The notes: generated by a model from the letters alone, not told the origin. A stretch of 64,000 nucleotides of DNA from an uncultured Dehalococcoidia bacterium (GCA_964555685.1 CAZKTO010000004.1:10858-74857); one strand, 5' to 3'. Counted from the stretch's first letter, positions 24,135 through 36,587 are shown. A program made the numbers and translations.

Positions 24135-24737
24135 CTACACCGTCAGATCGAACGCCTGGATCACGCCGTCCACCATCAGCCGGACCGCGATGGCCGCCAG
24201 CAGCAGGTTCGCGATCTTGGACATGGCGCGCAGGCCGCCCTTGCCCAGCACCGCCGTTACCACGTCCGCGAACCGGAAGATCAGCCACGCCGCCGCGATG
24301 TTGGCGACGAACGCCAGGGCCACGGCGCCGTCGCCATAGCGGTCCGAGAGGAGGAGCAGCGTCGCCAGGGTGCCTGGCCCCGCCGTCAGCGGCGTGCCGA
24401 TGGGCACCACCGCGATCATCTCCCGCCGGTCGGGCACGTCCACGAGCCGCCCGCCCACCAGGTCCCTGAGCGCCAGCGCCAGGAGCACGATTCCCCCGGC
24501 GATGGCGAAGTGGTCCACCTCGATGTCCAGCAAGTCCAGGACGGCCTGCCCCAAAAAAAGGAACGCGAAGCCCAGGACCGTCGCCGTCGCCAGGGCGATG
24601 TTGATGAGCCGCATGCGCTCCTTGGGCGCCGAGCCTTCCAGCAGGCCCAGCACGATGGGCAGCGTGCCGATGGCGTCGATGGCCACCAGGAGCGGCACGA
24701 ACGCCAGCAGGAACTCCTTGCCGAACCCCTCGCTCAA
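24135..24737 (-). CDS. MarC-family (UPF0056) integral membrane protein
   Basis: LLAFVPLLVAIDAIGTLPIVLGL... with multiple TM segments. Start guessed at in-frame TTG 24737, because the longer ORF overlaps the CoA-transferase gene. Confidence 0.75.
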   Translation of the reverse strand: MSEGFGKEFLLAFVPLLVAIDAIGTLPIVLGLLEGSAPKERMRLINIALATATVLGFAFLFLGQAVLDLLDIEVDHFAIAGGIVLLALALRDLVGGRLVDVPDRREMIAVVPIGTPLTAGPGTLATLLLLSDRYGDGAVALAFVANIAAAWLIFRFADVVTAVLGKGGLRAMSKIANLLLAAIAVRLMVDGVIQAFDLTV

Positions 24738-24762
24738 CGCCCGCTCCGCGCGCCGTGACGCC

Positions 24763-27342
24763 TCACTGCAACACCCCCAGCGCATCCAGCTCGTCGACGC
24801 GCCGGGGCGGCAGGCCCAGCTCCCGCTCCAGCGCATCCCGCGTGTGCTCGCCCAGGAGCGGCGTCCCCCGTTGCACCACGTGCGGCGAGCGGCTCATCAG
24901 CCATGGCGGGCGCATGCTCACCGGCCGGCCCAGCTTGGCGTGATCGAGGGTCAGGAAGAGCCCGCGCTCCTTCAGGTGCGGGTCCTCGGCGATGCGCCGG
25001 TTGCTCATGGACGGCATGGCGGCCACGCCCGCCGATTGGAGCAGCCGCGTCACCTCGTCGGGCGTCTGGCCCCCCGTCCACGCCGCCACCACCGCCTCCA
25101 GCTCGCTCTGGCGCTGGCGGCGGCCGGCCGCCGTCGCGAACCGGGCGTCGCGGGCCAGGTCCTCGCGGCCCATGGCCAGGCACAGGGCCCGCCACTCCTC
25201 GTCGGTCGCCACGGCGACGCTCACCCACTGGTCAGACCCCGACACGTCGGGGCGCCCCGCGCACCGGAAAACGCCGTGGGGCGCCATCCGCGGGTGGCCG
25301 TTGCCCAGCCGCGGCGGGAGCCGGTTCGCCAGGCCGACCTCGGCGAAGGTGTGCCCGAAGAGGCAGGCGATGGAGCCGTACGAGGCCATGTCGATGTGGC
25401 GCCCCCGGCCGGTGCGCGCTCGTTCCAGGAGCGCCGCCAGGACCGCCAGGGCGATGGTGGCCCCCGCTCGCATGTCCAGAGGCAACTGGAGGAGCGCCGG
25501 CGGGCCGTCCGGGTAGCCCGTGATGGCGCTGAGCCCGCTCAGCCCGGAGAAGACGGCGGCGACGCCGGGGTAATCTTTCTGGGGCCCCGCCGGGCCGAAG
25601 CCCGAGGCCGAGACGGTGACGATCGAGGGGTTCATCTGGCGGAGCACGCCGTGCCCCAGGCCCAGGTCCTCCATGACCCTTGGCCGCATGTTGTCCACCA
25701 CCGCATCGGAGATGCGGACCAGGTCGTGCACCAGCTCTAGCGCCTCGGGCCGCTTCACGTCCAGCGCCACGCTGCGCTTGTTCCAGTTGAGCGCGTGAAA
25801 GTCAGGCGAGGCATCGGGGTCGCTCCCGGACACGACGACGAAGTCCAGGTAGCGGGCGATGTCCAGCCGCTGGCGCGACTCGATCTTGATGACGTCCGCC
25901 CCCAGGCATGCCAGCAGGTGCGTGGCGATGGGCCCGGCGGCCACCCACGTGAACTCGACGATGCGATAGCCCGCCAGCGGTAGAAGGGGACCCTTCGGCA
26001 AGATAGGTCCTTCCCCTTCGAGACTCAGGGTCAGGACTCGCTTCGCTCGGCTCAGGGCAGGCTCTGACCCCACCCCGACAGGTTGGGCCGACTCGCCGGC
26101 CTTCCCGGCACGGGAAGGGGGCAGCCGTGGACCCGGTCCCTGGCCTTCGGCCGGCCCCTCGCCTTTGGGGGAGGAGAGGCCGAACTCGTCCAGGACCTGC
26201 TCCGTATGCTCGCCCAGACGCGGCGCACGCGGAAGGAGGCCGCTGGCGCCGGGCAGGAAAGAGAGGGGCCTGGGCAGCGTCACGCGACGCCCGCCGGGCG
26301 CCTCGACCTCGCCGAAGAGGCCGATGGCCTTCGCCTGGGGCGCCTTGAGCACCTTGTCCGCCGTGGGGAACCAGGCCACGAGCATCCCCCGGCTCTCCAG
26401 CATCTCGAAGACCTCTTCCCCCGTCTTGTCCGAGAGCCAGGCGATGATCTCCGGGTGGACGGCGGGCAGGTTCGCCCGGCGCTGGGCCGCGGTGACGAAG
26501 CGCGGCTCCTTCACCCACTCGGACCGGCCCATGAGCGCGGCCAGCCGCTCCCACTGCTCCTGCCGGTGAAAGGTCAGGAAGACCCACCCGTCCTTGCACG
26601 GGAAGAGCGTCGTGTTGGGCACCTCAACGGTGTAGCGGCCCGAGAGCTGGCCGCGGTTCAGCCAGAGGTCCATGGCGATCCGGGAGGCGTAGACCTCGGC
26701 CTCCCAGCGCGACAGGTCGATGTGCTGGCCGGCGCCGTGGGCGTCCCGGACGAAGAGGGCGGCCAGCACCGCGTCGGCGGCGAGCAGCCCCGCCGTGTAG
26801 TCGGCGATGAGGCCGCCCGCCTGCATCGGCGGACGCCGCGCGTAGACCTGCGGCGGGTGTCCGATGACCGGGGGCAGCATGTACGCCTCGCCGCCCGCGT
26901 GGGCGATGGTGAGGCTCTCGGCCCGCCATCCGGCGCAGGGGCCCGTCTGCCCGAAGGGCGTGATGGAGACCTGGACTAGCGACGGATTACCGGCGCTCAA
27001 CGACGCGTAGTCGAGCCCGAGACGCCGGGCCTCCTCCGGCGCCAGGTCGTCGATGAGCACACCGGCCCGGGCGGCCAGACGGCGCAGGGTCTCGCGCCCC
27101 TCGGCGCCGCGCCAGTCGAGGGCCACGCTCTCCTTGCCGGCGTTGCAGTAGAGGTAGAGCCCGCTGCACTCGGGGTCGGGGCCCGTGAGGGGGAAGGGCC
27201 CGTGCGCCCGCGACGGGTCGCCGCCGGTGGGCTCCTCGATCTTGACGACCCGCGCGCCCAGCTCGGCCAGCAGCCGCCCGCAGTAGGGCCCGGCCACGTG
27301 GGAGGCGAGCTCCAGGACAAGCGCGCCGGCTAGCGGTTGCAC
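24763..27342 (-). CDS. 859-aa tandem fusion of two family-III (CaiB/BaiF) CoA-transferase modules joined by a ~55-aa repeat-derived linker
   Basis: Module 1 starts MQPLAGALVLELASHVAGPYCGRLLAELGARVVKIE. Module 2 starts ...LPLAGYRIVEFTWVAAGPIATHLLACLGADVIKIE. There is no stop between them. The linker DNA (~26002..26175) contains GGCTCAGGGCAGGCTCTGA-type repeat sequence. Confidence 0.8.
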   Translation of the reverse strand: MQPLAGALVLELASHVAGPYCGRLLAELGARVVKIEEPTGGDPSRAHGPFPLTGPDPECSGLYLYCNAGKESVALDWRGAEGRETLRRLAARAGVLIDDLAPEEARRLGLDYASLSAGNPSLVQVSITPFGQTGPCAGWRAESLTIAHAGGEAYMLPPVIGHPPQVYARRPPMQAGGLIADYTAGLLAADAVLAALFVRDAHGAGQHIDLSRWEAEVYASRIAMDLWLNRGQLSGRYTVEVPNTTLFPCKDGWVFLTFHRQEQWERLAALMGRSEWVKEPRFVTAAQRRANLPAVHPEIIAWLSDKTGEEVFEMLESRGMLVAWFPTADKVLKAPQAKAIGLFGEVEAPGGRRVTLPRPLSFLPGASGLLPRAPRLGEHTEQVLDEFGLSSPKGEGPAEGQGPGPRLPPSRAGKAGESAQPVGVGSEPALSRAKRVLTLSLEGEGPILPKGPLLPLAGYRIVEFTWVAAGPIATHLLACLGADVIKIESRQRLDIARYLDFVVVSGSDPDASPDFHALNWNKRSVALDVKRPEALELVHDLVRISDAVVDNMRPRVMEDLGLGHGVLRQMNPSIVTVSASGFGPAGPQKDYPGVAAVFSGLSGLSAITGYPDGPPALLQLPLDMRAGATIALAVLAALLERARTGRGRHIDMASYGSIACLFGHTFAEVGLANRLPPRLGNGHPRMAPHGVFRCAGRPDVSGSDQWVSVAVATDEEWRALCLAMGREDLARDARFATAAGRRQRQSELEAVVAAWTGGQTPDEVTRLLQSAGVAAMPSMSNRRIAEDPHLKERGLFLTLDHAKLGRPVSMRPPWLMSRSPHVVQRGTPLLGEHTRDALERELGLPPRRVDELDALGVLQ

Positions 27343-27415: not shown

Positions 27416-27856
27416 TTACGCCTTCCGCCACTGGGGCAGGCTGATGTCCGGCGCCACGTCCTCGAACGTCACCTGGACCGGCATCCCGATGCGCACCTCG
27501 GCGGGCCTCACGTCCATGAGCCGCCCCACCATGAAAACGTTCCCCTCGTCCAGCTTGACCACGGCCACTGGCAGCGGCACCTTGTCGGCGAAGTACGGCA
27601 GCACCGGGTGGTAGGCGATGGTGTAGCTCCACACGATGCCCCGGCCGCTCATGGGGGCCCACTCGTAGCGCATCGAGTGGCAGTCGGGGCAGGCCGGACG
27701 CGGGTAGTAGCGGTAGCTCCGGCAGTCGGAGCAGCGCTGGATGCGCAGCTCGTGCCGTCGGCAGTGCTCCCAGAACTCGTGGTTGTCCCACCCCGGCTGG
27801 GGCAGCGGCAGGCCGGCGTAGGGCGCGAAGGGTGCGTTGGGGTTGGTCTGTGGCAT
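27416..27856 (-). CDS. DUF35 protein (rubredoxin-like Zn ribbon plus OB fold), partner type for thiolase-like enzymes
   Basis: CSDCRSYRYYPRPACPDC zinc ribbon followed by GRGIVWSYTI...VAVVKLDEG..MPVQVTFE. Confidence 0.85.
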   Translation of the reverse strand: MPQTNPNAPFAPYAGLPLPQPGWDNHEFWEHCRRHELRIQRCSDCRSYRYYPRPACPDCHSMRYEWAPMSGRGIVWSYTIAYHPVLPYFADKVPLPVAVVKLDEGNVFMVGRLMDVRPAEVRIGMPVQVTFEDVAPDISLPQWRKA

Positions 27857-28340: not shown

Positions 28341-28428
28341 CCTCTCCCCCGGCCCCTCTCCTGAATGGAGAGGGGCGCACCGTATCCCCCCCTTCCCCAC
28401 TGGGGAAGGGGGACGGGGGGTTAGGTCC
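28341..28428 (+). repeat. Type-A bipartite element
   Basis: CCTCTCCCCCGGCCCCTCTCCtgaatGGAGAGGGGCGCACCGTATCCCCCCCTTCCCCactGGGGAAGGGGGACGGGGGGTTAGGTCC. Its TTA (28421..28423) is the thiolase-like gene's stop codon on the other strand. Confidence 0.9.
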
Positions 28429-29611
28429 CCCTCCTCAAGATAAACGCTCCCGTGGGGTCGCTGTTGGCCGCCATGACGACGACGGCGCGGGCGTTGGGCG
28501 CCTGCGTCGTCGAGGCGCCGCGGATCTGGCGCACCGCCTCTAGCACGTTGTTGAAGCCGTGGATGAAGGCCTCCGAGTGCTGCCCGCCGTGGGTGTTCAG
28601 GGGCAAGCGGCCGCCGGGCCCCTCGAGGGCGCCGCCCTCGGAGAAGGGGCCGGCCTCGCCCCGGCCGCAGAAGCCCAGGTCCTCGAGGGCCAGGAGCGCC
28701 ATGGGCGTGAAGTGGTCGTAGACGTACGCCGCGGCGATATCCTTGTGCTTGAAGTCCGACTGCTCGAAGAGCCTTCGGCCCAGGCCCGCGGCCATGCGGT
28801 CGCGCGGGAAACGGAACCAGTCGCTGAGCTGGTAGTGGGCCGGCTGCACGTGCTGGGCGAAGGCGTGGACCACGGCCGGCGGCTGCGGCATGCTCCGGGC
28901 CTCCTCGGCGCGCGAAAGCACGACGGCGCAGGCCCCGTCCGTCTCGATGCAGCAGTCGAGGAGGCGCAGCGGGTCGGCGATCATGCGCGATTGGTGGTGG
29001 TCCTCCGGGGTGATGGGCGTGCGCATGACGGCGTTGGGGTTGCGGGAGGCGTGCTTGCGTAGCGCCACGGCCACGTTGGCGAAGTGGTCCTCCGTCCAGC
29101 CGTAGTCGTGCATGAGGCGCCGGGCGATGACCGCCATCTCCTGCGCCGGGCTCTGGATGCCGAAGGGCACGTGGTACTGGCCGTGGCTCGCGATGCGCGG
29201 CTCGACCTTCTCCCACGGGCGCCCGCCCTCGCTCGTACCGGGGCCGAAGACGGACCTGCGCCCCCTCGCCCGCGAACGGTAGGCGACGAGGTGCCTGCAC
29301 AGCCCGGCGGCGACGCCCAGCGCCCCGTGTCCAACGACAGCGGCGTAGGCCCCGCCCCCGTGGGGCTGCGTGACATAATAGCCGGCGTTCCCGATGCCGA
29401 GGAGCTGGTAGAGGTGGTTGTTCAGCCCCTCCACCTGGAGGTTGTAGCAGGAGACGCCATCAATGTCTCTGGGTGTGAGGCCCGCGTCGGCGATGGCCTT
29501 GAGGATGGCCTCGGCGGCCATGCTCCACTCGGACCGGTTCAGCCCCTTCCCGTACTCGGTCTGGCCGATGCCGGTGATGGCGACCCCGTCTTGCCACCAG
29601 AGTTTAGGCAT
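28421..29611 (-). CDS. Thiolase-like protein (SCP-x/Ltp-type, 396 aa), paralogue 1
   Basis: MPKLWWQDGVAITGIGQTEYGK..., ...DCCIETDGACAVVL..., ...LNTHGGQHSEAFIHG... . ATG 29611 is preferred because upstream is repeat DNA. Confidence 0.85.
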   Translation of the reverse strand: MPKLWWQDGVAITGIGQTEYGKGLNRSEWSMAAEAILKAIADAGLTPRDIDGVSCYNLQVEGLNNHLYQLLGIGNAGYYVTQPHGGGAYAAVVGHGALGVAAGLCRHLVAYRSRARGRRSVFGPGTSEGGRPWEKVEPRIASHGQYHVPFGIQSPAQEMAVIARRLMHDYGWTEDHFANVAVALRKHASRNPNAVMRTPITPEDHHQSRMIADPLRLLDCCIETDGACAVVLSRAEEARSMPQPPAVVHAFAQHVQPAHYQLSDWFRFPRDRMAAGLGRRLFEQSDFKHKDIAAAYVYDHFTPMALLALEDLGFCGRGEAGPFSEGGALEGPGGRLPLNTHGGQHSEAFIHGFNNVLEAVRQIRGASTTQAPNARAVVVMAANSDPTGAFILRRGT

Positions 29612-29618
29612 GCTTATC

Positions 29619-29732
29619 GCCCTCTCCCCCAACCCCTCTCCTGAAGGGAGAGGGGCGATTCCCCCTTCCCTACCAGGGAAGGGGGCCAGGGGGTTAGGGT
29701 CTCCCCCGGTCCTGCCACCAGAGTTTGGTCAT
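29619..29732 (+). repeat. Type-A element (29619..29701) plus a tail that duplicates the thiolase 5' end (29708..29732)
   Basis: GCCCTCTCCCCCAACCCCTCTCCtgaagGGAGAGGGGCGATTCCCCCTTCCCtaccaGGGAAGGGGGCCAGGGGGTTAGGGTC ... GGTCCTGCCACCAGAGTTTGGTCAT. Confidence 0.9.
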
Positions 29733-32216: not shown

Positions 32217-33419
32217 TCAGAGCACGCCGCGCTCGCGGAGGCCGGCGATCTGCTCCCACGAGTACCCGAACTCCTGGAGGACCTCCTCCGTGTGCTGCCC
32301 GAACTCCGGCGCCGCGCTCCGGGCCTGCGCCGGCGTCTCGCTCAGCTTCACCGTCACGCCCACCTGCCTCAGCTTGCCATGCACCGGGTGGGGCACCTCC
32401 GTCACGTAGTTGTTGGCGATGACCTGGGGGTCCTTCGGGATGTCCTCGTGCGTCTGCACCGGCCCGGCGATGATGCTCCGGGCCTTGAGCAGGCGCACCC
32501 ACTCGTCCCGCGGCCGGTTGGCAAAGAGCCGGTCCAGGGTCTCGATCAGCGGCTTGCAGTTGCCGTACCGCGTCAGGTGGTCCTTGAAGCGCGGGTCCTC
32601 CAGCAGCTCCGGCGCCCCGATGACTTCGCAGAAGTCGGCCCAGTAGCGGTCCGATTGGTTGCATCCCAGCGCGATCCACTTGCCGTCGCTGCACCGGTAG
32701 AGGTTCCACAGAGGGTTGCCGGCCTCCTGGCGCCGCCCGTGGGTGAACAGGTTCCCCGCCATGAGGTAGAAGTTCAGGGCCATGGCCTGGAGCGTGAGCT
32801 GTCCGCCGAGCTGGGAGGTCTGCACGTGCTGCCCCACGCCGAACCGCTCCCGCGCCACCAGCGCCGACATGATGCCGTACGCCAGGATGATGGCGCCGGT
32901 CTGATCGGCCAGGCCGCCGGCGACCTTGTACGTGACCTCTTCATCGGGCGTGGACATGAGCCACGTGAACCCGCCGCGGGCCTGGCCCACGATGTCGAAG
33001 ACCGGGTCGCGGGCGTCGGGCCCCAGGTCGCCCAGGCCCGTCACGGACCCGTAGATGATGCGCGGGTTCACCTTCCGCACGCTCTCGTAGCCGACGCCCA
33101 GCTTCTCGACGACGCCCAGGCGGAAGTTCTGGGTCACCACGTCCGCCTTCTTCGCCATCGCCATGAAGATATCGCGCCCCTCTGGACTCTTCAGATTGAG
33201 CGTCATGCTCCGCTTGTTACGGTTCATGGTCTCGAAGTACACGTTGATGGGGCGCGGCTTGGGCGATCGGGCGCTCATGGCGCGGCCGGGGTCGCCGTTG
33301 ACCGGGTCCTCGATCTTGATGACGCTGGCTCCCATGTCCGAGAGCATGGTCGTCGCGAAGGGGCCGTTCTGCCAGATGGTCATGTCGAGGACGGTGATGC
33401 CGTCGAGGGGTGAAGGCAT
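32217..33419 (-). CDS. Family-III (CaiB/BaiF) CoA-transferase
   Basis: MPSPLDGITVLDMTIWQNGPFATTMLSDMGASVIKIE.... ATG 33419 chosen. Confidence 0.85.
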   Translation of the reverse strand: MPSPLDGITVLDMTIWQNGPFATTMLSDMGASVIKIEDPVNGDPGRAMSARSPKPRPINVYFETMNRNKRSMTLNLKSPEGRDIFMAMAKKADVVTQNFRLGVVEKLGVGYESVRKVNPRIIYGSVTGLGDLGPDARDPVFDIVGQARGGFTWLMSTPDEEVTYKVAGGLADQTGAIILAYGIMSALVARERFGVGQHVQTSQLGGQLTLQAMALNFYLMAGNLFTHGRRQEAGNPLWNLYRCSDGKWIALGCNQSDRYWADFCEVIGAPELLEDPRFKDHLTRYGNCKPLIETLDRLFANRPRDEWVRLLKARSIIAGPVQTHEDIPKDPQVIANNYVTEVPHPVHGKLRQVGVTVKLSETPAQARSAAPEFGQHTEEVLQEFGYSWEQIAGLRERGVL

Positions 33420-33563
33420 GGACGCTCTCTCCCGGTCCGCATCCGCCTGAGGAGGACGGCGGGCACCCGGCGACGCCGGAGGCTCGCGCGACAGAGTAGA
33501 TCGTGGGGCTACTCTAGCCCTGGCCTCGGCGGATGTCAACGCACGCCTCCGAGCCAGAGGTCT

Positions 33564-33989
33564 TTACGTGGTGAGGTCTTCCATCAGCTCAACAGGCAGG
33601 CCGTCCGGGTCGGCCACGTAGAAGCTGCGCTTGCCGCCCGGCAGCCGCTCGATAGGCGAGACGAAGGCGCTCCCGCACGCCAAGGCCAACTCCCGCCGCC
33701 GCTGGAAGTCCGGCGCGTTGAAGCACAGGTGGGGGTTGCCGCCGCGCCGGTGATGCAGGGTCAGCGCCTCGCCGCCGGCGGCCAGGTACTGCACCAGCTG
33801 GAGCGTGAAGCCCCCGAGGGTCAGCTGCGCCACGCGGATGCGGGCCCCTTCGTTGCCCGTCAGCCGGTCGAACCACGGCCCGCCCGTCTCGTTGCGCCGG
33901 CCTTCCGTCATGCCGGCGACGTCCCGGTAGAAGGCGACCGACGCCCCCAGGTCTCGCACGGTCAGGCCCATGTGGTTCAGGGTGGCCAT
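33564..33989 (-). CDS. VOC-family (glyoxalase/bleomycin-resistance/dioxygenase fold) protein
   Basis: MATLNHMGLTVRDLGASVAFYRDV...GGNPHLCF...RSFYVADPDGLPVEL. The rest of the 467-aa track ORF is out-of-frame overlap with the next gene. Confidence 0.8.
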   Translation of the reverse strand: MATLNHMGLTVRDLGASVAFYRDVAGMTEGRRNETGGPWFDRLTGNEGARIRVAQLTLGGFTLQLVQYLAAGGEALTLHHRRGGNPHLCFNAPDFQRRRELALACGSAFVSPIERLPGGKRSFYVADPDGLPVELMEDLTT

Positions 33990-34002
33990 GGATGCGGCTG
34001 CC

Positions 34003-34114
34003 GCCCTCTCCCCCAGCCCCTCTCCTGAGCGGAGAGGGGCGCACCGCGTTCCCCCTTCCCTTGCAGGGAAGGGGGCCAGGCGCCGTCCTGAGCTTGTCGA
34101 AGGAGGGTTAGGGC
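34003..34114 (+). repeat. Type-A element, long variant with the extra GCCAGGCGCCGTCCTGAGC..GAAGGAG segment
   Basis: GCCCTCTCCCCCAGCCCCTCTCCtgagcGGAGAGGGGCGCACCGCGTTCCCCCTTCCCttgcaGGGAAGGGGGCCAGGCGCCGTCCTGAGCTTGTCGAAGGAGGGTTAGGGC. Confidence 0.9.
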
Positions 34115-34120
34115 TCTGTC

Positions 34121-35374
34121 CTACCCTATCTTCACCTCGGTCGATATGATCCCCCGCGCCTTGAGGTCTGTGAGCTCGGCGTTGGAGAGGCGCAGCACCT
34201 CGCCGAAGACGAAGTCGTTGTCCTCGCCCAGCGTTGGGGGCGCCTTGCGCGCCTTGACGGGCGTCCGGGAGAGGATGGCCGGGAAGCCGTAGTAGGGATG
34301 CCGCCCGCCGTTCACGGGCCGGTCGATCCATTGGATGAAGTCGCGGGCCTTGAGCTGGGGGTCGTGGACGATGCTGGCCGCGTTGTTGGCGGCCCCCGCG
34401 GGCACGCCGCGAGATTGGAGCAGCGTCATGACCTCGCGCGGCTCCCGCTCGCGCGTCCATGCGGCGATGGGCTCCCGCAGCGCGGCCTCGTTCTGCCAGC
34501 GGCTCAGGGCGTCGGCGAAGCGCGCGTCCTTGGCGAGCTCTGGGCGTCCCATCGCCCCGCACAGCGCCTGGAACTGCGCGTCCGTCTGCACCGTGATGGC
34601 CACCCACTGGTCCTGGCCCCCTTCGGCAGGGCTCAGGGCAGGCTTGCAAGGGAAGGCCCCGTGGGGAGCCCACGCCGGGTGCCGGTTGGCGTCCCGCTCC
34701 CGCACCCGTCCGTTCATCGTATAGTCCAGGATGGCGGCGGCGTTCAGGTAGGACGCCCCCTCGGTCGTCGAGAAGTCGATGTACTGGCCCTGGCCCGTCC
34801 GGCGCCGGTGCTCCAGCGCGATGAGGACGGCCACGGCCGCGTACATCCCGCCGATGGGGTCGGTCATGGCCGAGTGGGCGATGGGCTCCCGGTCCGCGTA
34901 GCCGCTCATGTACGTGATCCCGGAGGCCTCCTCGAACTGTGGCCCGAAGCCCACGTAGTGCTCCCACGGCCCCCCGTGCCCGAAGCCGGGCATCGAGAGC
35001 AGGACCGCTGTGGGATTGGCCCGCCGCACGAACTCGTAGCCGAGGCCCAGGTTCTTGATCACGCGGGTGCTATAGTTCTCGGCCACCACGTCGCTCACGC
35101 TGATCAGGCGGCGCAGCAGCTCCAGCCCTTCGGGCTTCCCGAGGTCGAGCGTACAGCCGTATTTGTTGACGTTGGTGCCGTTGAAGATGGGCGCCCACTC
35201 CCAGAAGTTGGGGCGGCCCGCCCCGGCGCCCTGCGTCCGCACGCTATCGCCCCGGCCTGCGGGTTCGACCTTGATGACCTGCGCGCCCAGGTGGCCCAGG
35301 AACTGGGTGCTGAAGGGGCCGGCCCAGAACTGGGTCAGGTCGGCCACCCGCACGCCCGAGAGAGGAAGGCTCAT
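34121..35374 (-). CDS. Family-III CoA-transferase
   Basis: MSLPLSGVRVADLTQFWAGPFSTQFLGHLGAQVIKVE.... Confidence 0.9.
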   Translation of the reverse strand: MSLPLSGVRVADLTQFWAGPFSTQFLGHLGAQVIKVEPAGRGDSVRTQGAGAGRPNFWEWAPIFNGTNVNKYGCTLDLGKPEGLELLRRLISVSDVVAENYSTRVIKNLGLGYEFVRRANPTAVLLSMPGFGHGGPWEHYVGFGPQFEEASGITYMSGYADREPIAHSAMTDPIGGMYAAVAVLIALEHRRRTGQGQYIDFSTTEGASYLNAAAILDYTMNGRVRERDANRHPAWAPHGAFPCKPALSPAEGGQDQWVAITVQTDAQFQALCGAMGRPELAKDARFADALSRWQNEAALREPIAAWTREREPREVMTLLQSRGVPAGAANNAASIVHDPQLKARDFIQWIDRPVNGGRHPYYGFPAILSRTPVKARKAPPTLGEDNDFVFGEVLRLSNAELTDLKARGIISTEVKIG

Positions 35375-35378
35375 GGCG

Positions 35379-36587
35379 TTACAGCACCCCCTGCTCGGAG
35401 AGGATCACCAGCTCGTCTTTGGAGAGGCCCAGCCGCCCGCAGTAGACCGCCTCGTTGTCGTCGCCCAGGGCGGGCGCCGGACGGGAGAGCCGCCAGGGCG
35501 TCTGCGCCAGGTTGAACGGGCGGCCAGGGCCGGTGACGGGGCCCGTGGCCCGGGTCCCCAGGTCGGTGAAGAAGCCGCGGGCGTTGAACTGGGGATTCTT
35601 CGCCACGTCCTCGGCGCTGGCCACCTTGACCATCGGGATCCGCAGCTCCTGCCCGCGGGACACGATCTCCTCGGCCGGGCGCTCCAGGAACCAGGGCGCG
35701 AGGATGGCCATCGCCTCGTCGGCGTGCTCGATGCGGGCCAGCGGCGTCGCGAAGCGCGGGTCGTCCTGCAGGTGCGACATATCCAGCAGCACCGTCAGGT
35801 ACTCCCACTGGTGCTGAAGCATCGTATAGAACCCGATGTACCCGTCCTTGCACCGCACGATGGAGATGGGGAAGCGGTTGCCGGAGCGCGGCATGAGCAC
35901 GTTCCGGTACGAGTAGCCCAGGGCCGTCGAGGGGAGCGCCGTGATGAGCGACTCGAGCACCGAGACGTCGGCCCGCTGGGCGCCCGTCTCGTCGCGGCCG
36001 TAGAGCGCCCCCAGCGTCGCGCTGGCGGCGTTGAGCCCGGCCACGAACTCGCTCACGTCTTCGCCCGCCCGCAGCGGCTCTCGCCCCGGCAGGCCCATGC
36101 TGATCATCAGGCTCCCCAGCGCCCACTGTACCAGGTCCGTCCCCTGGTAATCGCGGTACGGGCCCGACTGGCCGAAGTCGCTGATGGACGTGACGATCAG
36201 GCGCGGGTTCGCCTGCTGGAGCGCCTCGCCCGCGAGGCCCCACGCCGCCAGGACGCCCGGCCGCATCGTCTCAACGAGGACGTCGGTGTCCCGCAGCAGC
36301 TCCCTGAAGATGACGGCGCCCGTGGCCGTGGAGGGGTCGAGCGTCACGCTCCGCTTGTTGGTGTTCAGGAAAAGATGGAGGCCTCCGGCCTCTGCGTCGA
36401 TGCGGTCGCCGCGGAAGGGGCCCGCGCGCCGAACGGGGTCGCCCGCCACCGGCGGCTCGACCTTGACGACCTCGGCCCCGAAGTCGGCCAGGAACTTGGC
36501 GCAGAAGGCCCCCGCGATACGGTCGCTGAGTTCAATGATGCGTAAATGCTGGAGGGCCTGGTCCGGCATGTGATGGTTCCCGTTCAC
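35379..36587 (-). CDS. Family-III CoA-transferase
   Basis: ...LQHLRIIELSDRIAGAFCAKFLADFGAEVVKVE.... The start is either GTG 36587 or ATG 36569. The stop is 4 nt from the next gene's start. Confidence 0.85.
   Translation of the reverse strand: MNGNHHMPDQALQHLRIIELSDRIAGAFCAKFLADFGAEVVKVEPPVAGDPVRRAGPFRGDRIDAEAGGLHLFLNTNKRSVTLDPSTATGAVIFRELLRDTDVLVETMRPGVLAAWGLAGEALQQANPRLIVTSISDFGQSGPYRDYQGTDLVQWALGSLMISMGLPGREPLRAGEDVSEFVAGLNAASATLGALYGRDETGAQRADVSVLESLITALPSTALGYSYRNVLMPRSGNRFPISIVRCKDGYIGFYTMLQHQWEYLTVLLDMSHLQDDPRFATPLARIEHADEAMAILAPWFLERPAEEIVSRGQELRIPMVKVASAEDVAKNPQFNARGFFTDLGTRATGPVTGPGRPFNLAQTPWRLSRPAPALGDDNEAVYCGRLGLSKDELVILSEQGVL

Follow-up and report, generated by a model that had tools for sequence, protein, structure and literature searches.

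How did a single reading frame come to hold two family III CoA-transferases, and what part did the repeat DNA at their junction play? The locus lies in a 64,000-nucleotide stretch (hereafter the window; G000:C4:10858-74857) of a 3.03-Mb MAG with 170 contigs and 5.5% contamination, from an uncultured Dehalococcoidia (Chloroflexota) bacterium. The original prediction described two neighboring CaiB/BaiF genes that were fused when an inserted repeat deleted the stop codon of the first. Our analysis leads to a different history: with high confidence, this is an anciently fused two-domain CaiB/BaiF CoA-transferase whose linker was later lengthened by in-frame dispersed repeats. Feature coordinates are collected in Table 1.

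The minus-strand ORF at 24763..27342 runs from a GTG to its stop, is open throughout, and encodes 859 aa, which should yield one product of 92 kDa. As had been predicted, the chain holds two complete CaiB/BaiF modules: Pfam finds two full CoA_transf_3 domains (PF02515) in two stretches (E = 3.4e-183). Module 1 is also short at its C terminus, as claimed. Its last residues are ...LGEHTEQVLDEFG, and the final helix seen in module 2 (residues 846-854 in the AlphaFold model) and in the three stand-alone CaiB paralogues of the window (at 32217-36587) is absent. A decaying gene was considered and rejected: on either side of the linker GC3 is 0.9-1.0, the frame has no stop or frameshift, and the predicted fold is confident.

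Table 1. Features of the two-domain CoA-transferase locus and related loci; coordinates without a prefix are those of the window
Feature	Coordinates	Strand	Basis
Two-domain (tandem) family III CoA-transferase, 859 aa	24763..27342	-	ORF, Pfam, full-length homologues
Module 1, residues 1-392, partner-type half, without terminal helix	26167..27342	-	Pfam, PDB matches
Module 2, residues 453-859 plus stop, catalytic-type half	24763..25986	-	PDB match to BbsEF chain B
Inter-module linker, residues 393-452, predicted disordered	25987..26166	-	GC3, pLDDT, spacing
72-nt dispersed repeat, in frame, residues 427-450	25992..26063	not assigned	genome copies; X5 contig
Second, older repeat-like linker segment	26064..26125	not assigned	genome matches; common to X5 relative
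In-frame TTG, codon 448, preceded by GAAGGGGAAGGA	25999..26001	-	inside 72-nt element; absent from empty-site allele
Asp623, module 2	codon 25474-25476	-	aligned to D178 of BbsEF chain B
D181, module 1 acid at catalytic position	codon 26800-26802	-	alignment
MarC-family membrane protein, downstream	24135..24836	-	Pfam PF01914; also follows the closest relative's gene (L023)
ChsH2/DUF35-type zinc-ribbon and OB-fold protein, upstream	27416..27856	-	Pfam PF01796, PF12172
SCP2-type thiolase-like protein, upstream	28421..29632	-	Pfam PF22691
Orthologous fusion, 905-aa frame	G008:C1:504731-507139		genome search
purH (AICARFT/IMPCHase), in-frame insert of ~35-45 aa	G000:C5:53641-55296; repeat C5:54712-54752		Pfam, GC3
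Homoserine-dehydrogenase-like gene, in-frame insert	G000:C2:83247-85133; repeat C2:84612-84638		GC3 0.92 / 0.93

The linker differs from the modules in composition, conservation, and predicted structure. Residues 393-452 have a noncoding-like composition: GC3 in these codons is 0.68, compared with 0.92 for the whole gene, and the bulk G+C of the window is also 0.68. In a full-length alignment of 117 tandem proteins (the 859-aa query and 116 homologues), the linker columns show no conservation and span 22-76 aa. The spacing between H379 and L456 is 76 aa in the query, the longest in the set; in all but a few of the 117 proteins it is 22-45 aa, with a median of about 30. An AlphaFold2 model of the whole chain falls below a pLDDT of 50 solely in residues 404-447. 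The linker includes the peptide stretch VLTLSLEGEGPILPK.

The join does consist of repeat DNA that is read through without a stop, as originally described. Searched against the genome, 25985-26185 had 26 matches. Finer BLAST resolved a core at 25991-26068 with up to 19 copies per position; counting partial ones, about 20 further copies of this core occur elsewhere in the 3.03-Mb genome. Both motifs that had been quoted from the join recur more often than in shuffled sequence. The description of this DNA as intergenic in type is a fair one, since 13 of the 21 other matches have no spanning ORF and lie outside long open frames, and most of the rest are in frames of low GC3. The copies form a mosaic family whose sub-modules are combined differently from one copy to another. 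Next to the core, the segment 26064-26122 has two to three further genome copies, with matches at G000:C36:26902-26960 and in contigs C76 and C19.

A join inside a repeat raises the question of whether the assembled sequence is right. If a MAG contig had been mis-joined, or an indel lost in the repeat, the true locus would be two genes or a frameshifted one. The genome is fragmented into 170 contigs with 5.5% contamination, the repeat core is present in many copies (depth about 160 vs. 5), and at 26020/26021 a 1-nt indel distinguishes other copies from this one. We nonetheless consider such an artefact extremely unlikely. Contigs from three metagenomes (runs X1, X2, and X3) of two studies back the linker sequence, the support consisting of assembled Logan contigs rather than raw reads. 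In X3, which comes from another study, a single contig spans 25914-26160 with no differences. In X1, probably the source sample, exact unitigs tile the linker stretch, and one of them (25688-26031) passes the indel site while carrying this copy's own variants at 25997 and 26000. X2 is exact over 26037-26188. At the level of assembled contigs, the linker thus contains no stop or frameshift, in agreement with the original prediction. A chimeric join is also unlikely because both halves are closest to the same fused orthologues and the closest relative keeps the MarC gene downstream; a relative found in run X5 is fused as well. An assembly chimera at the repeat itself was rejected on the orthology of both halves, the conserved synteny, and the spanning contigs.

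Run X5 is a metagenome from a further study. Its 427-nt contig is about 97% identical to this locus and joins 25868-25991 directly to 26064-26350. What it leaves out is exactly 72 nt (25992-26063), encoding EPALSRAKRVLTLSLEGEGPILPK (residues 427-450) in our sequence, so that the contig represents an empty-site allele in which the frame is kept. The join in this allele, rebuilt from the flanks and the listed substitutions (5 of 11 mismatches) rather than read through as a full frame, would be ...QPVGVGS followed by GPLLPLAGYRIVEF. The 72-nt element is therefore polymorphic for presence and absence between the two populations, with a clean empty site. Two alleles alone do not polarise the change, which may be an insertion or a precise deletion of 72 nt. 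The same contig lacks 18 nt (six codons) at 26134-26151, again in frame, and small in-frame indels of this kind appear to shape linker evolution as well.

A search for inverted and direct repeats in 25900-26300 found no terminal inverted repeats and no target-site duplication, and comparison with X5 shows only 1 nt shared at the junction. RNA and DNA folding gave no hairpin or palindrome beyond chance in the linker or the 72-nt unit when compared with shuffles (z-scores of -0.62, -0.57, +0.29, and -0.87), with short local stems only. The Rfam scan of 25850-26300 returned no family. We note that the ends of the element can pair with flank sequence that the empty-site allele retains: GAAGGGGAC with GTCCTTCCCCTTC (25983-25991 and 26007-26019), and GGGTCAG with CTGACCC (26028-26034 and 26064-26070). 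This pairing might point to a preferred target, to recombination with the remnant of an older repeat, or to chance alone.

The age of the fusion can be judged from its distribution among relatives, which in our genome scan are Dehalococcoidia MAGs. Genomes of sister genera within the family carry their best matches to modules 1 and 2 side by side in a single open frame, in the same order and at 59%-62% identity. These sister-genus orthologues join their modules by about 20 residues (e.g., ...LTEVGQPNSVVPTSPTRRGGPTLPLEGVRILEF) and have the same truncated module 1 end. Besides the 905-aa frame in Table 1, further fused loci are present in five genomes (G010, G001, G011, G012, and G014). Seven database proteins (P0002-P0008) of 802-836 aa share the tandem layout at 50%-69% identity. 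The original prediction had proposed a search for other tandem CaiB proteins of about 850 aa; among 8000 candidates scored from a large protein database, at least 656 had this tandem layout and a length near 800 aa. Among the 120 matches listed, lengths are 783-857 aa and nearly all cover 96%-100% of the query. The genome itself has about 109 stop-to-stop CaiB/BaiF ORFs, eight of them tandem fusions; many of the others form adjacent pairs.

These data bear directly on the proposal that two adjacent CaiB genes became one only recently, through a repeat insertion that took away the stop and tail of module 1. The join is indeed repeat DNA, module 1 has no terminal helix, and unfused adjacent CaiB pairs exist in relatives' genomes (L013 and L020). 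However, repeat-free orthologues are already fused and end module 1 at the same truncated point, the X5 gene is fused though it is without the 72-nt element (its frame being reconstructed), at least 656 homologues are tandem, and the class is already in the literature (PMC6006322). We conclude that the fusion is much older than the repeat, since it is found in repeat-free orthologues, in hundreds of homologues, and in the X5 allele. A recent, repeat-driven origin is barely credible, and the claim that the insertion removed a stop codon and so made the fusion does not hold.

The fused architecture is in fact not new, being that of an old, common, and already described class. A class of two-domain enzymes whose linker is poorly conserved has been defined, with DddD and PtmU4 as characterised members and 2,401 homologues counted in 2017 (PMC6006322). 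DddD has two CaiB domains (PMC7174347), and the CaiB-type family is expanded in Chloroflexota (SAR202) (PMC5395668). Our protein has the traits of this class: two PF02515 domains in one chain, a poorly conserved linker, and a conserved catalytic Asp, which as in DddD and PtmU4 is conserved in one domain only. It differs in its linker, which consists of repeat DNA and exceeds twice the usual length. The likeness to DddD and PtmU4 is one of domain layout. The gene context here comprises thiolase-like, DUF35, and further CaiB genes, and neither an acyl-CoA synthetase partner nor DMSP genes were found near the two-domain gene. As an enzyme it is ordinary, one more uncharacterised member of a large named class, and it offers no new substrate handle.

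The X5 allele also bears on the supposed start of module 2. The original prediction gave module 2 a plausible start of its own, a TTG preceded by GAAGGGGAAGGA. An in-frame TTG with this Shine-Dalgarno-like motif exists, at a spacing of 6 nt, but it occupies 25999-26001 rather than starting at 26001. Nor can it be the start of a former gene: TTG and GAAGGGGAAGGA both lie wholly within the 72-nt element and are missing in the X5 allele, and we therefore regard them as a by-product of the repeat rather than the relic of a separate gene. The repeat could in principle have re-split the gene, with GAAGGGGAAGGA and the TTG driving internal initiation to produce a free 412-aa module 2 in addition to the fusion or instead of it. 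The motif, the in-frame codon, and the suitable 6-nt spacing would allow this. Yet GAAGGGGAAGGA is simply part of the repeat consensus, most repeat copies have CTG in place of TTG, and the orthologues and the X5 allele have neither element, which makes internal initiation very unlikely.

Structure prediction on the tandem, as the original prediction had suggested, gave a confident result. AlphaFold2, run on the 117-sequence alignment, yields a mean pLDDT of 91.7 and a pTM of 0.92, and in the model the two modules form a compact body, with the repeat-encoded segment as a flexible loop. Its best structural matches are chains B and D of BbsEF, the succinyl-CoA:(R)-benzylsuccinate CoA-transferase (PDB 9fn0, 9fol, and 9fun), with a TM score of 0.93 on the target and 35% identity. 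The two modules differ in their PDB matches. Module 2 is best matched by BbsEF chain B (2.9e-60; chain A, 1.2e-21). Module 1 is nearer to chain A (4e-36) than to chain B (1.4e-21), but nearer still to 4ed9 (1.9e-44), a homodimeric CaiB/BaiF protein, so it is not specifically BbsE-like. BbsEF may offer a parallel for two non-equivalent halves, although there they are separate polypeptides and here a single chain.

The catalytic positions of the two modules differ in conservation. D623 in module 2 aligns with D178 of BbsEF chain B and with the Asp of formyl-CoA transferase; the title of entry 9fol names a D178-CoA adduct. The D623 column is Asp in 116 of the 117 tandem proteins. At the corresponding position of module 1, D181, the column is variable (56 Asp, 42 Glu, and 19 other), and the closest relative has Gly. 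It follows that the protein is most likely a single-chain heterodimer with its conserved nucleophile in the C-terminal half, and the earlier reading of a single-chain pseudo-heterodimer was correct, given also the whole-chain pTM. Judging from the alignment, Asp623 should be the nucleophile that forms the acyl-anhydride and CoA-thioester intermediates. The two halves would be non-equivalent in the manner of the subunits of heteromeric BbsEF: the N-terminal half, whose own acid (Asp181) is not conserved in the family, would complete the interlocked pseudo-dimer as the partner.

The neighborhood gives a general indication of function. Thiolase-like, DUF35, SDR, and CaiB genes are seen around the locus, and the thiolase-like and DUF35 neighbors recall BbsAB of the bbs operon, though nothing seen here points to benzylsuccinate metabolism. 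The enzyme probably transfers CoA to a carboxylic acid within a minus-strand, beta-oxidation-like catabolic cluster. The two-domain CoA-transferase matches no NCBIfam equivalog above cut-off, and for this reason no substrate is assignable.

We next consider how the linker may have reached its present length. The fusion came first, with a short ancestral linker, and the repeat much later; in this lineage the linker then probably grew as dispersed repeat DNA, mostly of intergenic type, inserted in frame. The latest insertion may be the 72-nt unit, which near-identical relatives still either carry or lack. The 24 to about 45 inserted residues are most likely tolerated as a disordered surface loop and would be neutral. 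The linker would in this way hold a record of an ancestral state, an older repeat layer, a polymorphic 72-nt element, and a different repeat in a sister lineage.

That different repeat is found in P0002, the closest database relative (locus L023, on a contig of GCA_964373685.1; 66%-69% identity). Its linker (L023:1212-1418) contains another in-frame repeat, which has three short, G+C-rich hairpins and matches our genome 27 times. Because P0002 has a different repeat at the same site, the linker has been struck independently at least twice. The repeat family of our linker also occurs in frame elsewhere, in purH and in a homoserine-dehydrogenase-like gene, with GC3 of 0.85-0.93 flanking the inserts. 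In purH, Pfam reports the AICARFT domain as two stretches, split by the insert (...FPFEGSGSGLAESTLSLSKGSAQDMSGQARGP...; flanking GC3 of 0.92 and 0.85). The peptide SEPALSRAK is common to the homoserine-dehydrogenase-like insert and the CoA-transferase linker. The different repeats in two lineages, the polymorphic 72-nt unit, and the copies in purH and the homoserine-dehydrogenase-like gene lead us to suggest, tentatively, that in the linker of Chloroflexota two-domain CoA-transferases dispersed intergenic repeats could insert time and again, to be translated there as linker peptide.

A comparable case was reportedly described by Ogata and colleagues in 2000, in the form of Rickettsia palindromic elements (RPE) that lie in frame inside genes. 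Like RPE-, REP-, and MITE-like repeats, the present family is short, dispersed, mostly intergenic, and in frame in several genes; as with RPE, it sits at permissive surface or linker positions and adds a peptide without breaking the gene. Unlike RPE, it occurs in another phylum and is a mosaic of sub-modules rather than one defined palindrome. It also differs from REP, MITE, and RPE in folding no better than shuffles and in having no terminal inverted repeat, target duplication, or transposase partner shown.

Selfish repeats in these Dehalococcoidia may thus be routinely absorbed into coding sequence at permissive sites. If so, this would amount to an RPE-like, genome-wide remodelling of protein loops and linkers, essential proteins included, that is undescribed in this phylum, and it would bear on the origin of disordered linkers. 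For the annotation of such MAGs, it would mean that an unusually long linker or a split Pfam domain need not be an error. A repeat copy also lies just upstream of a leucyl-tRNA-synthetase-like start (G000:C2:108975-111836), where the stop-to-stop frame extends to 954 aa; this longer frame is an annotation trap.
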